From Kiritimatiellia bacterium (lineage in GTDB: Bacteria > Verrucomicrobiota > Kiritimatiellia > UBA8416 > SLMC01): a stretch of DNA of 42,839 nt. The stretch is taken from positions 1 through 42,839 of the forward strand of contig SLKS01000064.1 of assembly GCA_007134465.1 (NCBI GenBank). The letters are read 5' to 3'. The translations under genes were made by a program, and so were the position numbers. The stretch's first letter is position 1. Every line of letters starts with the position of its first letter. Under the pieces are notes generated by a model, which saw nothing but the letters and a program-made list of their open reading frames with translations, had not been told where the DNA came from and searched no databases. Positions 16,165 through 26,983 of this stretch are shown here, one piece after another.

Positions 16165-16180
16165 AGCAGTCGCGATGCCA
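16165..16180 (-). promoter_or_regulatory. sigma54 (-24/-12) promoter for fliR
   Basis: Minus strand TGGCATCGCGACTGCT = GG-N10-GC, matching TGGCAY-N-YTGCW, about 150 nt upstream of the fliR ATG. Confidence 0.75.
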
Positions 16181-16190
16181 TAGAGGGGAT

Positions 16191-16227
16191 GAAGAGAGGG
16201 ATGAGGGCGGAAACCTGAAACCTGAAG
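16191..16227. repeat. Dispersed 37-bp repeat B (GAAGAGAGGGATGAGGGCGGAAACCTGAAACCTGAAG)
   Basis: Exact inverted copies at 26883-26919 and 38125-38161. Partial copies at about 16298-16322, 19943-19971, 20895-20919 and 15189-15200. Confidence 0.9.
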
Positions 16228-16551
16228 AGAGGGATGCTTGCCCGCCGGCTTGTCCTGAGTCGCTGTTGCGCAGAAGGGAGCGCTCGGGCGGAGGCGGGAG
16301 GGCGGAAACCTGAAACCTGAAGGAGCGTGGAAGGCAAGCCCCGCTCCGTGTCACCCCGTCACCGGGCAAGCCACGCCGGAGGCTTCCCCCATCCTTGTCT
16401 CGATCATCGTCCCGATCGCTGTCGCCGACGATCAAGACAAGGATCGTGACAACGATGAAGACCGACGAAGATCGCGACAAGGATGAAGCCGACCCACCCC
16501 CCTTCCGGCATCATCTTTGGCCGAACGCTTCGTTCAATCTTCTCCCGGAAT

Positions 16552-16594
16552 TGTCAAACTTCGGGAGTCCCCCGGCAGAGCCGGGGGCTTACCC
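16552..16594. mobile_element. Hairpin resembling an IS200/IS605-type element end (no transposase)
   Basis: Perfect stem CCCCCGGC-AGA-GCCGGGGG (16569-16587). The minus strand reads AAGCCCCCGGCTCTGCCGGGGGACTCCCGAAGTTTGACA, which I recall as similar to IS200-type ends (not verified). Confidence 0.4.
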
Positions 16595-16602
16595 TGTTCT
16601 GT

Positions 16603-16794
16603 TAGACGGCATCCGAAAAGAGTCTGCCTGCACAGGTTGTCATCCCGCGCGTCCCGCCGTAGTTTGTTGTTCACGAAGGCGGAAGCCTGCGAGGGATCTC
16701 GGCGGAACGCCGCTACACAAAGGGGTTTCGCGAAGCGAGATTCCTCGCAAGCTCGGAATGACAAACATACCCGACCCTTTTCGGATGTCGTCTA
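16603..16794. mobile_element. MITE-like element with 20-bp terminal inverted repeats and nested REP-like palindrome
   Basis: TA-GACGGCATCCGAAAAGAGTC ... GACCCTTTTCGGATGTCGTC-TA (18/20). Interior TGTCATCCCG..GCGAGGGATCTC ... GAGATTCCTCGC..CGGAATGACA. Confidence 0.7.
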
Positions 16795-17162
16795 GTTAAT
16801 GACGTTGTGCGCGGCGAAAAAAAGGCGACAGGCTGCAGCATAGCGCTTGCTAATTGGCGCGGGATCGGGCAGGTTCCACCCATAATGCACGGGCACGGAG
16901 TGAGCCTTGACGGCCTGTGGAGCAACAACCACGAAGAGCGCGAAGAGCACGAAGATTTTGGCCCGCGAATGGACGCGAATGAAGAAGATTTAACCACGGA
17001 AAACGCGGAATACACGGAAGAAGATTAGGGCGAAAGATTACGGCGAAAGATTAGGGGTCGGGCATGCCACGCCGTAGGCTTTGCGAAGGCGGGCGGGTGG
17101 TGAAAAAAGAAAGTTTAACCACGGAGCGCACGGAGAACACGGAGGGCTATCAGGCGGACATA

Positions 17163-17347
17163 CTAGGCCTGGAATAAGCGAGGGTTTCGTCGCGAGAGTG
17201 CGCAAACGTCTGCGGATGGGGTGCTTGAGACGGGGCGCGCGATTCTCGCATATTGAAATATGGGTGAAATGCGCGCCCCGCCTCAAGTGCCGCAGGCGTT
17301 GGCGTTGGCGTGCTCGTAGCAGAAAAACTCGCTTATTTTAGGACTAG
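17163..17347. mobile_element. 185-bp foldback/MITE-like element bounded by CTAG
   Basis: Left CTAGGCCTGGAATAAGCGAGGGTTTC versus reverse complement of right CTAGTCCTAAAATAAGCGAGTTTTTC. Inner arms CTTGAGACGGGGCGCGC / GCGCGCCCCGCCTCAAG close on CATAT-TGAA-ATATG. Confidence 0.75.
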
Positions 17348-24226: not shown

Positions 24227-24242
24227 CGGCATGTCGCTTGCT
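24227..24242 (+). promoter_or_regulatory. sigma54 promoter for the small Cys-rich ORF and probably flhA
   Basis: CGGCATGTCGCTTGCT(A), divergent from the flgL promoter. Confidence 0.75.
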
Positions 24243-24290
24243 AACAGAACATCGCATCCTGCGGAAAGAAAGCGCGAAAGGAGGCGCATC

Positions 24291-24488
24291 ATGGTCAAGA
24301 ATCTCAAAATCGCGATCCAATGCTGCGAATGCCATCGGGTTAAGGACGGAGCGGTCTGGCACGAGGAGCCGCACCGCGACGACGTCGCCTATTCGCACGG
24401 CTACTGTCCCACCTGCATGCGCAACGCGCTGATACGGTTCGGGTTGGAATCCAACATGGTCAACCAGGCGCTGGCGATGGCGCAATAG
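24291..24488 (+). CDS. Small (65 aa) putative Zn-binding protein (CxxC...SHGxCxxC)
   Basis: CCECHRVKDG..W..YSHGYCPTC. Strong AAGGAGG RBS. Confidence 0.75.
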   Translation: MVKNLKIAIQCCECHRVKDGAVWHEEPHRDDVAYSHGYCPTCMRNALIRFGLESNMVNQALAMAQ

Positions 24489-24649
24489 GGCGCGCAGCCG
24501 GACAAATCGTCAGGGCGGGCCGATATCCGCAACCGGAAAGAATTGAACAGAAGGGAACGAAGAAGGGCGGGCACACTTCGTTTCCTTCGTGATCTTGCCG
24601 TAGAACCCGAAGACGCGGGAACAAGTCGATAATCAAGGGCCGGGGGAAC

Positions 24650-26767
24650 ATGGAAGCACAGAGCCAGAATCGTTTTGCGCGGGCGGATTTCATCATCGCG
24701 GCGGCGCTGACTTCGATCTTGGCGGTGCTGATCATTCCCATCCACCCGCGTCTGCTGGACCTGATGCTGGTGCTAAGCATCGCCGTGGGCGTGCTGATTC
24801 TGATTCTGACGACACAGATCAGCAATCCGTTGCAGTTGTCGTCGTTTCCGTCGCTTCTTCTGTTGCTTACGCTGTTCCGGCTGGCGCTGAACGTGGCGAC
24901 CACGCGCCAGATCCTGCTGCGCGCCTTTGCGGGAAACGTGATTCAGGCGTTCGGCCAGTTCGTGGTGGGCGGCAACTATGTGGTGGGCATTGTCGTCTTC
25001 CTGATTCTGGTGGTGATCAACTTCATGGTGATCACCAAAGGCGCGGGCCGGATCGCGGAGGTGACGGCACGGTTCACGCTGGACTCTATGCCCGGCAAGC
25101 AGATGAGCATTGACGCGGACTTGAGCTCGGGCCTGATTGACGAGGCCACGGCGCTGGCGCGGCGCGAAGCGTTGCGGCGCGAGTCGGACTTTTACGGAGC
25201 GATGGACGGCGCCAGCAAGTTCGTGCGCGGCGATGCGATCGCGGGGCTGATCATTACGCTCATCAACATTGCGGGCGGATTCGCGGTGGGCATGCTCCAG
25301 CGCGGCATGCCTGCGCATCACGCGTTGCGCACCTATACGCTGCTGACGGTCGGCGACGGGCTGGTGGCGCAAATCCCGGCGCTGGTCATTTCGACGGCGG
25401 CCGGCATGATGGTGACGCGCGCGGCGTCGGACGACACGCTGGGCAAGGACATTGCCGGCCAACTGCTGAAGCGGGCGAAGCCGCTAACGACCACCGGCCT
25501 CATATTGGCGGCCATTTCACTGGTGCCGGGCTTGCCGTTCCTGCCGTTCGTGGCGCTGGGCGGCACATTGACGGCGTTGGGTCTGGCGCGCAAGGCGGCG
25601 CCGGCGGAAGCGGAGGAAAAGCCGGAAGGAAAAACCGATGCCAGCGGCAAGGCGCTCGAGTCGGGCTCGGCACGCGGCGCATTGCCGGCTGCGGGCTCCG
25701 ACAAGCAGCCGCCCCCGGTTTCGCCCATGGATCTGGAGATCGGGTTCGGGTTGGTGCCGCTGGTGGATCCGGCGCAGGGCGGACAGTTGATCGAACGCAT
25801 CCGACTGATCCGCAACCAAATCGCCGAGGAACTCGGTTTCGTGCTGCCGCCGGTCAATGTGAAAGACAATATCCAATTGAAGAACACGGAATATTGCATC
25901 AAAGTGCGGGGTATCGAATTGGCGCGCGGCACGGTTCAGCCCGGCCGACTGATGGCCATCAACCCCGGCGGCGGCGCGCCGCTCGAGGGCTACAAGCCGG
26001 TGCGCGAACCGGCCTTCGGGTTCGAAGCCTATTGGATACCGAAAATCGCCCGCGAAAACGCCGAGTCCGCCGGCATGACCGTCGTGGACGATGCCAGCGT
26101 GATCACCACGCATCTGGCCGAGGAATCGAAACGGCATGCGGCCGACATCCTGACACGCCAGGACGTGAGCGACATGGTCGGCCGCCTCAAGCAAACCCAT
26201 CCGTCGGTCGTCGAGGAGCTGCTGCCGAACAAAATGACGATCGGCAAAGTGCATCGGGTGCTGCAAAGCCTGTTGCGGGAACGGGTCTCGATCCGCGATC
26301 TGCCCGCAGTTCTGGAGACGCTGGCCGACCAGGCCGACCTTACGCGCGATGTCGGGCTGCTGACGGAACATTGCCGCCGCACGCTGGGCGCGTCCATTTG
26401 CCACGGCCGCCTGACCCCCGACGGAACCTTGCAGGCGATCGGGCTGCACCCGGACCTCGAACAGATGATCCGCCAGCACACCAAACGCGACGGCGCCGAA
26501 ATCGGTCTGCTCGTCATGCCGCCAGCCCTGGCGCACGAGGTTCTGGTCCACATCCGCAAGGCGGTGGAAACCGCGCGCGCCAAAGGCGGCGACCCGGTTC
26601 TGCTCTGCTCGCCGCTGATCCGGCCTCAGGTGCGAAGGCTCACCGAGCACGAGTTCCGGGACATGCCCGTGATCTCCTTCGCCGAAACGCCCGACAATGT
26701 CAAAATAGACATTCTGGGCATGGCCGTCGCGCCCGCCGCCGGCAAAGCCGAAGAGATGGCGGCGTAG
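24650..26767 (+). CDS. flhA: Flagellar export gate protein FlhA
   Basis: FPSLLLLLTLFRLALNVATTR, VITKGAGRIAEVTARFTLDSMPGKQMSIDADL, FYGAMDGASKFVRGDAIAG and TVGDGLVAQIPAL. Confidence 0.97.
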   Translation: MEAQSQNRFARADFIIAAALTSILAVLIIPIHPRLLDLMLVLSIAVGVLILILTTQISNPLQLSSFPSLLLLLTLFRLALNVATTRQILLRAFAGNVIQAFGQFVVGGNYVVGIVVFLILVVINFMVITKGAGRIAEVTARFTLDSMPGKQMSIDADLSSGLIDEATALARREALRRESDFYGAMDGASKFVRGDAIAGLIITLINIAGGFAVGMLQRGMPAHHALRTYTLLTVGDGLVAQIPALVISTAAGMMVTRAASDDTLGKDIAGQLLKRAKPLTTTGLILAAISLVPGLPFLPFVALGGTLTALGLARKAAPAEAEEKPEGKTDASGKALESGSARGALPAAGSDKQPPPVSPMDLEIGFGLVPLVDPAQGGQLIERIRLIRNQIAEELGFVLPPVNVKDNIQLKNTEYCIKVRGIELARGTVQPGRLMAINPGGGAPLEGYKPVREPAFGFEAYWIPKIARENAESAGMTVVDDASVITTHLAEESKRHAADILTRQDVSDMVGRLKQTHPSVVEELLPNKMTIGKVHRVLQSLLRERVSIRDLPAVLETLADQADLTRDVGLLTEHCRRTLGASICHGRLTPDGTLQAIGLHPDLEQMIRQHTKRDGAEIGLLVMPPALAHEVLVHIRKAVETARAKGGDPVLLCSPLIRPQVRRLTEHEFRDMPVISFAETPDNVKIDILGMAVAPAAGKAEEMAA

Positions 26768-26927
26768 AGACGAGAGCGATCAGGGGCCAGGGACCAATCT
26801 GCGGGTCATCGAGTCATCGGGTCACAATAAGAACGACAAAGCGACTCGGTGACTTGGTGACACGGTGATTCGGCCTTCTTCCCTTCAGGTTTCAGGTTTC
26901 CGCCCTCATCCCTCTCTTCCCCCCCTC

Positions 26928-26965
26928 CCCTCATCATTCATCATTCCGCATTCATCATTCTCTTC
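26928..26965. repeat. Repeat A copy forming a perfect 38-bp inverted pair with 30176-30213
   Basis: CCCTCATCATTCATCATTCCGCATTCATCATTCTCTTC is the exact reverse complement of GAAGAGAATGATGAATGCGGAATGATGAATGATGAGGG. Confidence 0.95.
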
Positions 26966-26967
26966 TC

Positions 26968-26983
26968 TGGCATCGGCCCTGCT
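26968..26983 (+). promoter_or_regulatory. sigma54 promoter for flhF-flhG-orf-fliA
   Basis: TGGCATCGGCCCTGCT(A), 56 nt upstream of the flhF ATG. Confidence 0.8.

Follow-up and report, generated by a model that had tools for sequence, protein, structure and literature searches.

The window described here is a stretch of 42,839 nucleotides (nt) from a Kiritimatiellia bacterium (Verrucomicrobiota; GenBank assembly GCA_007134465.1, contig SLKS01000064.1, positions 1 to 42,839 of the forward strand), which carries a region of flagellar genes including fliO, fliP, fliQ, fliR, flgL, flhA and flhF. Six sequence elements resembling promoters of the alternative sigma factor RpoN (sigma-54), here called boxes, lie in this region, and each of them directly follows a pyrimidine-rich tract that belongs to a genome-wide family of repeats with a period of 7 nt. 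The window is contig C406 of a metagenome-assembled genome (MAG; G000) of 3.99 Mb with 409 contigs, 62% GC and a completeness of 85%, and its source run is labelled soda lake metagenome. Among the relatives used for comparison, G001 is a sister species of the same genus, G002 belongs to another genus of the same family, and G005 to the same order. Gene identities were derived from Pfam scans, and the features of the region are listed in Table 1.

Table 1. Genes, sigma-54 boxes and repeat elements of the flagellar region (positions in the window).
Feature	Positions	Strand	Remarks
fliR (Bac_export_1)	15241..16017	-	Pfam E 1.6e-45; codon-model gene call
Sigma-54 box, fliR	16165..16180	-	TGGCAT-N5-CTGCT; ~145 nt before fliR start; repeat ends 9 nt upstream
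Gene-free repeat mosaic, 1.26 kb	16181..17440		between SprA-related gene and fliR box; module A towards box, module B towards stop; inverted pairs I1, I6, I9, I11, I12
Module B at stop of SprA-related gene	17393..17434	+	no promoter
SprA-related family gene	17441..18307	-	Pfam; with orf90 (18304-18576) between fliQ and fliR
Module B at fliQ stop	18620..18655
fliQ (Bac_export_3)	18650..18919	-	no box of its own; 176 nt of repeats separate it from fliP
fliP	19096..19875	-	Pfam E 1e-78; start inferred, including alignment by eye with G002
Independent (Logan) contig bridging the fliP junction	19527..19938
Sigma-54 box, fliP	19888..19903	-	in-frame ATG at 19873-19875, 13 nt past the -12 GC
fliO-fliP gap	19904..20190		all modules; order on gene strand H, D, D', A, B, box
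Logan contig bridging the fliO junction	20094..20845
fliO	20191..20778	-	Pfam E 2.9e-9; codon-model gene call
Sigma-54 box, fliO	20793..20808	-	ATG 15 nt past the -12 GC
Nested palindromic cassette, fliO box to kinase gene	20809..21304		arms B/B' and D/D' around a central GC hairpin at ~21046-21090; pairs I5, I8, I10, I16, I22, I23
Logan contig bridging the flgL junction	21185..24001
Hybrid PAS histidine kinase with receiver domain	21390..22961	+	Pfam
flgL-type hook-associated protein	22973..23905	-	Pfam; flagellin N and C domains
Sigma-54 box, flgL	23951..23966	-	from pattern search
Cassette between divergent flgL/CxxC boxes	23967..24226		left end purine-rich (B', C'), right end pyrimidine-rich (A-like, C); pair I14
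Sigma-54 box, CxxC gene and flhA	24227..24242	+	divergent from flgL box
65-aa protein with two CxxC pairs	24291..24488	+	no Pfam family; between box and flhA, kept there in G002
flhA (FHIPEP)	24650..26767	+	Pfam E 2.6e-252
Modules A and B directly before flhF box	26877..26967	+
Sigma-54 box, flhF	26968..26983	+	downstream order flhF, flhG, orf95, fliA-like sigma gene
flhF (SRP54-type GTPase)	27040..28155	+	Pfam
Module B at stop of fliA-like gene	30175..30213

Sigma-54 boxes and proposed transcription units

A search of the window with the pattern YGGCAY-N5-YTGCT returned six sites against 0.18 expected, the largest number in 100 dinucleotide-preserving shuffles being two. These are exactly the six sites quoted in a preliminary description made from the sequence alone, except that the spacer between the two conserved blocks had been given as N6, whereas the 16-mers contain N5 and thus show the canonical GG-N10-GC spacing of sigma-54 promoters. 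All six boxes are intergenic, lie on the same strand as the next gene and are located 13-180 nt from its start codon. Their five spacer bases and the sequence past the -12 element are different in every case.

The strict pattern occurs 31 times in the assembly, with six sites in the window contig, five in C63 and four in C7. With the last base left free, 20 boxes of the genome were intergenic and at most 250 nt upstream of a co-oriented gene, and 12 of these 20 precede flagellar genes or lie within flagellar clusters. Outside the window, the flagellar boxes stand before flgF and before two genes of unknown function, one of which has a Maf-like gene behind it (all three boxes in C63), as well as before fliW-csrA-flagellin (C19), motA (C64) and flhB (C293). 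A thirteenth flagellar box, that before fliS, is situated inside coding sequence.

The genome also encodes the factors that such promoters require. The product of rpoN (C7:35945-37474) contains the full set of three sigma-54 domains (Sigma54_AID, CBD and DBD; Pfam), and 20 strong Sigma54_activat matches reveal genes for bacterial enhancer-binding proteins (bEBPs). A Fis-type helix-turn-helix (HTH) match was obtained for 18 of these 20 proteins, five of these matches being below the Pfam cut-off, and one further protein has another C-terminal HTH; the sole bEBP lacking an HTH match (C218), the one candidate for a flagellar activator devoid of a DNA-binding domain, is truncated by the contig end. 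In addition, a good sigma-54 box lies 36 nt ahead of the rpoN start codon (C7:37510-37670), with a second box 145 nt further upstream and a divergent box opposite, which suggests autoregulation of rpoN. A bEBP of the response-regulator type is encoded 3 kb from rpoN.

If active, the boxes would divide the flagellar region into small transcription units, namely fliO; fliP-fliQ with the two inserted genes; fliR; flgL; the CxxC gene with flhA; and flhF-flhG up to the fliA-like gene. Encoded past FlhF are a MinD/FlhG-type ATPase and the FliA-like sigma factor, and the 90-aa product of orf90, beside the SprA-related gene, matches no Pfam family. Like fliO and fliP, flgF starts 13-15 nt past the -12 GC of its box (C63:8759-8787). 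Because of this short distance, the transcripts of fliO, fliP and flgF would be leaderless or nearly so, and the fliP mRNA is, judging from its predicted start, probably leaderless. The same spacing between box and start recurs in G002 (fliO and fliP) and at the box in the fliO position of G005.

Repeat tracts upstream of the boxes

The DNA upstream of each box had been described as a C/T-rich repeat tract, and this was borne out: the adjoining 60 nt consist of 72-87% pyrimidines, 50-85% of this stretch is covered by 15-mers with at least five copies in the genome, and the last such 15-mer stops 2-10 nt before the box. Repeats also make up the DNA in which an enhancer would be expected. The tracts are composed of modules, for which we use the letters A-H as labels of this analysis and all of which show the 7-nt period. 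Module A consists of two CAGGTTT units followed by CCGCCCTCATCCCTCTCTTC, module B of CATCATT-type units around CCGC with a CTCTTC end, and module C of AACCATY units with a TTCTTCC end, while modules D, E/H, F and G are positioned further upstream of the boxes. Phase-variable simple sequence repeats (contingency loci) are marked by several perfect tandem units and by length variants within a population; at the boxes the units are degenerate, with two to four imperfect copies. No repeats adjoin the flagellar boxes of motA, flhB and fliS.

Three of the six junctions are spanned by Logan contigs, which stem from a separate assembly of the source metagenome. For fliP, fliO and flgL this assembly contains the gene, the box and the first 35-45 nt of the repeat with zero differences; the contigs break within the repeats. 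No 7-nt insertions or deletions next to the boxes were present in the Logan contigs, which drop rare variants. The only matches among contigs from RNA libraries were to repeat modules or, with mismatches, to conserved parts of genes, and these contigs were unassignable to the locus in the window.

The pure pyrimidine runs were also considered as potential H-DNA. Since 566 runs of at least 12 nt occur in non-coding DNA and only four of them are next to a box, this idea was dropped as non-specific. Speculatively, the purine strand of the modules might hold CsrA sites or stops in all reading frames.

A genome-wide repeat family

The repeats had been described as cassettes fused to the promoters, and a specificity for promoters did not hold. 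In a census based on 15-mers with at least five copies, the repeats cover 132,469 of 647,915 non-coding bases (20.4%) vs 1.9% of coding sequence; a check with 20-mers showed that the assembly is not redundant, and a census of 12-mers was discarded, as these recur by composition alone in a genome with 62% GC. Autocorrelation peaks at lags of 7 and 14 were seen for non-coding and not for coding DNA, and when strictly tandem copies were required, periods of 7 and 14 predominated. Elsewhere, for example in C247, whole intergenic regions are kilobase mosaics of the same modules.

The modules have a defined polarity. A census of every genome copy of the end motifs (at most one mismatch) yielded 21 copies for module B, of which five have a box next to them and 12 the stop of a converging gene at or within 51 nt. 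Among 24 copies for module A, one is followed by a box directly and two via another module, and 12 abut or overlap the stop of a converging gene. Stop codons are abutted by the modules about as often as sigma-54 boxes, and in every case it is the CTCTTC end that faces the neighbouring feature. Genome-wide, among the repeat-covered 3' flanks of genes, purines predominate on the strand of the gene in 50 cases and pyrimidines in eight, which is the mirror image of the upstream side of the boxes, as cassettes with inverted ends predict. Repeats reach 20-29% of gene 3' ends, compared with 1-7% of the 40 nt before gene starts. Module A was also considered as a coding C-terminal tail and rejected, given that its frame relative to the upstream stop varies among the copies (by eye).

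A 19-mer of module A (at most one mismatch) was found 23 times in G000 and four times in G001, with zero hits for the reversed control, and module B is almost restricted to the genus. In the source metagenome the summed contig depth of the modules ranges from hundreds to more than 1000, vs approximately 8-10 for unique parts of the locus. Perfect tandem copies of module A with a unit of 33-45 nt are located at contig ends (C253:1-110 and C304:54260-54340, and C190:1-130 of G001), suggesting that longer arrays were probably broken by the assembly.

Within the window, the intergenic cassettes are partly palindromic. Folded as single-stranded DNA, the cassette between the fliO box and the kinase gene (20809-21304) reached a z-score of -5.10, with none of 100 shuffles as good, and it possesses inverted arms; the one between the divergent flgL and CxxC boxes is weakly palindromic (z = -1.91). 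No clear inverted arms were apparent in the fliO-fliP and flhA-flhF gaps. The mosaic upstream of the fliR box is almost completely covered by repeated 15-mers. It contains a 22-nt inverted pair 148 nt apart (I12) and a 59-nt near-palindrome (I1), at 16603-16794 and 17196-17315, whose 15-mers recur in the genome.

A GC hairpin with the sequence GCGGCCAC-loop-GTGGCCGC, with AAAGAGGAGTGTAAAA directly behind it, is found at 18540-18600 and 21046-21090 of the window, and a related hairpin with a compensated stem is found in the sister species G001 (L023:20-70 and 2330-2370). It is not terminator-like on either strand. An Rfam scan of positions 15000-31500 at E <= 1 returned just two sub-threshold chance matches.

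Related repeats were noticed in two further contexts. AACCATC heptamers occupy the 5' coding end of prepilin-type genes (C376:1842-2375, C376:4130-4240, C227:128-250 and C381); for one of these genes the N_methyl motif was confirmed, and its leader peptide MNHQPSTINHSSS is encoded by the repeat. A change in the copy number of the 7-nt unit could shift the reading frame at this coding start. Furthermore, PF05635 (23S rRNA intervening-sequence protein) has 11 matches in the genome, six of them over the cut-off, and was present in one of 14 control genomes. Inverted 7-nt arrays flank PF05635 genes at C6:10430-10895 and C64:1786-2270, the latter within a flagellar cluster, and a small PF05635 gene at C308:6520-6900 is likewise bracketed by such arrays. 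The heptamers of these arms differ from those of modules A, B and C, so that the arms are not the same as in the cassettes described here.

Conservation of the boxes in relatives

An FlhA match was obtained in only four of 30 relatives searched. A separate search with FlhA returned mostly distant phyla; the nearest named record, a Lentisphaerae MAG (61% identity), roughly places the organism in the Planctomycetes-Verrucomicrobia-Chlamydiae group. In G002, boxes stand at orthologous positions before fliO, fliP, flgL, the CxxC gene and flhF, i.e. for five of the six. No equivalent of the fliR box was found in G002, in which fliQ and fliR are directly adjacent. In G001, flhF and flgL are each preceded by a box and flhA by a weaker one of the TGGCCT type, and in G005 a box is probably present at the fliO position. 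Separate promoters on adjacent export genes had been called unusual, which applies to fliO and fliP, yet the arrangement is conserved in G002.

The DNA flanking the boxes is not conserved. No copy of either module A or module B was found in G002, GT-rich repeats unlike those here adjoin the flhF box of G001 on its upstream side, and the fliO box of G002 lies behind a pyrimidine-rich tract with a 7-nt period but a different sequence. The gaps differ in length, too: the distance from the fliO stop to the fliP box is approximately 95 nt in G002 vs 288 nt here, and that between the divergent flgL and CxxC boxes approximately 75 nt vs 260 nt. Regarding the earlier suggestion that the repeats act as enhancer or bending sites or displace them, "displace" is the better word.

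It had further been proposed that promoter and repeat may move jointly, as one portable unit. A mobile or gene-converted unit of this kind could have installed new sigma-54 promoters before the flagellar genes, and approximately 45 nt upstream of fliP, fliO and flgL are indeed near-identical, running from module B through a C-rich linker to the -24 element; the fliR box, without a counterpart in G002, may be new. However, the likeness ends at -24, beyond which the spacers and the following sequence differ among all six boxes, and most module copies have no box. Given that G002 retains five boxes without modules A and B and that those of G001 stand beside unrelated repeats, the promoters appear to be ancestral rather than part of a portable unit, and we regard such a unit as very improbable.

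The boxes could also be relics or chance matches, with the genes being read from other promoters. Some of them indeed depart from the textbook form TGGCAC/TTGCW by carrying CGGCAT or CTGCT. The six matches against 0.18 expected, their intergenic position on the correct strand close to the start codons, and above all their retention across genera in spite of differing flanking DNA render this explanation extremely improbable. Taken together, the six boxes look like genuine, separate and inherited RpoN promoters.

Module D and the enhancer zone

Enhancers of sigma-54 promoters are usually conserved, dyad-symmetric activator sites 80-200 nt upstream that are common to co-regulated promoters. A possible candidate of this type is a dyad, GGGCATGCCC, carried by module D approximately 100-190 nt upstream of six boxes, corresponding to six of the ten repeat-bearing promoters. 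Copies of the D type precede fliP (three), fliO (one), fliR (one), flgF (two), the unknown gene in C63 (one) and fliW (two), all in one orientation relative to the box. Module D is not present upstream of the flgL, CxxC and flhF boxes, and by eye no upstream motif was found in common with the promoters of G001 or G002.

Discussion

We favour the explanation, with a probability of about 0.6, that the boxes are vertically inherited RpoN promoters and that the repeats are neutral filler cassettes with a 7-nt period which end at the promoter edge. The tracts would represent the outward-facing end modules of partly palindromic cassettes of degenerate 7-nt units, which are spread over the genome and have related forms in relatives. 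The gene-bearing heptamer-arm elements with PF05635 genes in this genome are in line with such a family. These cassettes would have inserted or expanded into pre-existing promoter regions and filled every tolerated gap in this species, stopping at stop codons on one kind of boundary and at the -24 box on the other. That the tracts end 2-10 nt before the -24 element can be explained by the constraint that starts there, as it does at stop codons, and the pyrimidine-rich tracts themselves are probably not part of the promoters.

The activators of sigma-54 work at a distance by looping. For this reason, sigma-54 promoters should tolerate insertions better than sigma-70 promoters, and we infer that this tolerance, rather than a function of the repeats, accounts for their position. 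No specific sequence would be needed between the -24 box and a remote activator site, with the activator looping or acting from solution, and any enhancer would thereby sit 200-300 base pairs (bp) or more away.

Several observations weigh against neutral filler. As a background for upstream DNA, the stretch from -120 to -60 was scored for the 1546 genes whose upstream non-coding DNA measures 120 nt or more, of which 15.1% were as repeat-covered and 1.4% as pyrimidine-rich as the tracts at the boxes; among the 20 intergenic boxes, ten have repeat-covered upstream DNA and nine at least 70% upstream pyrimidines. Repeats cover 42% of the flagellar gaps vs 20.4% of non-coding DNA genome-wide, and approximately ten of roughly 16 sites at which an A, B or C end module faces the 5' end of a gene carry a sigma-54 box. 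This exceeds a random scatter of filler, and the tolerance argument covers the excess only in part. Although flagellar gaps make up just approximately 1.3% of non-coding DNA, they contain 11 of the 47 intergenic copies of module D, and all 11 point at the promoter. The module A 19-mer, moreover, occurs one to three times in seven genomes from seven other families of the order, which is odd for neutral filler. Finally, the repeats are probably under-assembled in a fragmented MAG of 409 contigs, and the genome-wide gene calls come from our own codon-model caller, which is crude but recovers the Pfam-supported genes of the window.

The same observations can be read as a recruitment of the cassettes as working parts of the flagellar sigma-54 promoters, i.e. 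as linker, bend or enhancer carrier. In one version the D-module dyad would be an activator binding site spread by the repeat; in another, the 7-nt tracts would determine how far the enhancer lies from the promoter, how the two are phased on the helix (three units give 21 bp, or two turns) or how readily the DNA between them bends. The uniform orientation of the D copies, their accumulation in flagellar gaps, the pyrimidine richness at nine of 20 boxes and the different, likewise pyrimidine-rich 7-nt tract behind the fliO box of G002 are in line with this. On the other hand, 36 of the 47 D copies lie elsewhere and are inconsistently oriented to genes (overall 26 towards a 5' end and 19 towards a 3' end), three boxes of the window lack D, and those of motA, flhB and fliS are free of repeats. 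The orthologous promoters of G002 have neither module A nor B, and those of G001 have purine/GT-rich repeats instead. Furthermore, length changes by slippage should be rare with such degenerate units, and 7-nt indels by the boxes were absent from contigs that drop rare variants. We consider recruitment possible, though on balance unlikely. The stronger claim that heptamer cassettes inserted between enhancer and -24 box are not neutral and serve the flagellar regulon as a tunable linker or as carrier of a D-dyad enhancer would explain the doubled repeat density in flagellar gaps and the single orientation at all ten promoters; we judge it distinctly unlikely.

The boxes resemble the class II promoters of FleQ and FlrA in Pseudomonas and Vibrio in that GG-N10-GC boxes precede export-gate genes, flhA and flhF, and in that rpoN and bEBPs are present. 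In contrast to those genera, the upstream DNA here is a repeat cassette without a recognisable FleQ-type site, and fliO and fliP appear leaderless. Helicobacter pylori possesses with FlgR an enhancer-independent flagellar activator. A mechanism of the FlgR type would account for sigma-54 promoters with arbitrary upstream DNA; 18 of the 20 bEBPs found here, however, have a Fis-type HTH match. For the Pseudomonas putida flagellar cluster, several primary and internal promoters are described, one internal promoter being located before flhF, and fliK-LMNOPQR-flhB is read as one operon (bioRxiv 10.1101/2021.08.29.457346). Measured against that account, the separate boxes of fliO, fliP and fliR constitute a difference. 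Among the literature matches listed, nothing dealt with sigma-54 flagellar promoters of this lineage.

Repeats with 7-nt units are known as the short tandemly repeated repetitive (STRR) sequences of cyanobacteria and as long simple sequence repeats. Our elements share with STRR and TAACTGA repeats the short, exclusively intergenic 7-nt arrays near gene boundaries and a patchy distribution across lineages. They differ from both by many degenerate units in ordered, partly palindromic mosaics and by a placement that favours gene 3' ends and sigma-54 boxes over the DNA directly ahead of gene starts. The TAACTGA direct repeats of Beggiatoaceae, Cyanobacteria and Bacteroidetes are the nearest published description that we found for these heptamer elements (PMC4679880). 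With repetitive extragenic palindromic (REP) sequences, bacterial interspersed mosaic elements (BIMEs) and REP doublets forming hairpins (REPINs), which are associated with RAYT transposases, they have in common that they are short, dispersed intergenic repeats, many of them at gene 3' ends. As in REP and REPIN sequences, the reversed module D has GTAG followed by GC-rich sequence, and the genome harbours Y1_Tnp homologues; the 7-nt periodicity sets them apart, and modules A, B and C contain no clear hairpin of the REP type.

The promoters themselves are ordinary, whereas little has been described of the cassette family and of its tendency to stop at sigma-54 boxes. The locus offers a natural experiment on the upstream requirements of sigma-54 promoters, given that in one species the 200-300 bp by the -24 element have been replaced with cassettes at ten flagellar promoters, while close relatives have kept these promoters free of such cassettes. 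Promoters that remain active in this setting would provide a measure of how little sigma-54 activation depends on the intervening DNA; should the cassettes have an effect, they would represent a new way to wire or tune a regulon. The window also supplies a well-documented case of poorly described intergenic elements with a 7-nt period, which account for one fifth of the non-coding DNA of this organism and belong to an element class common to an order of soda-lake bacteria of the Planctomycetes-Verrucomicrobia-Chlamydiae (PVC) group.

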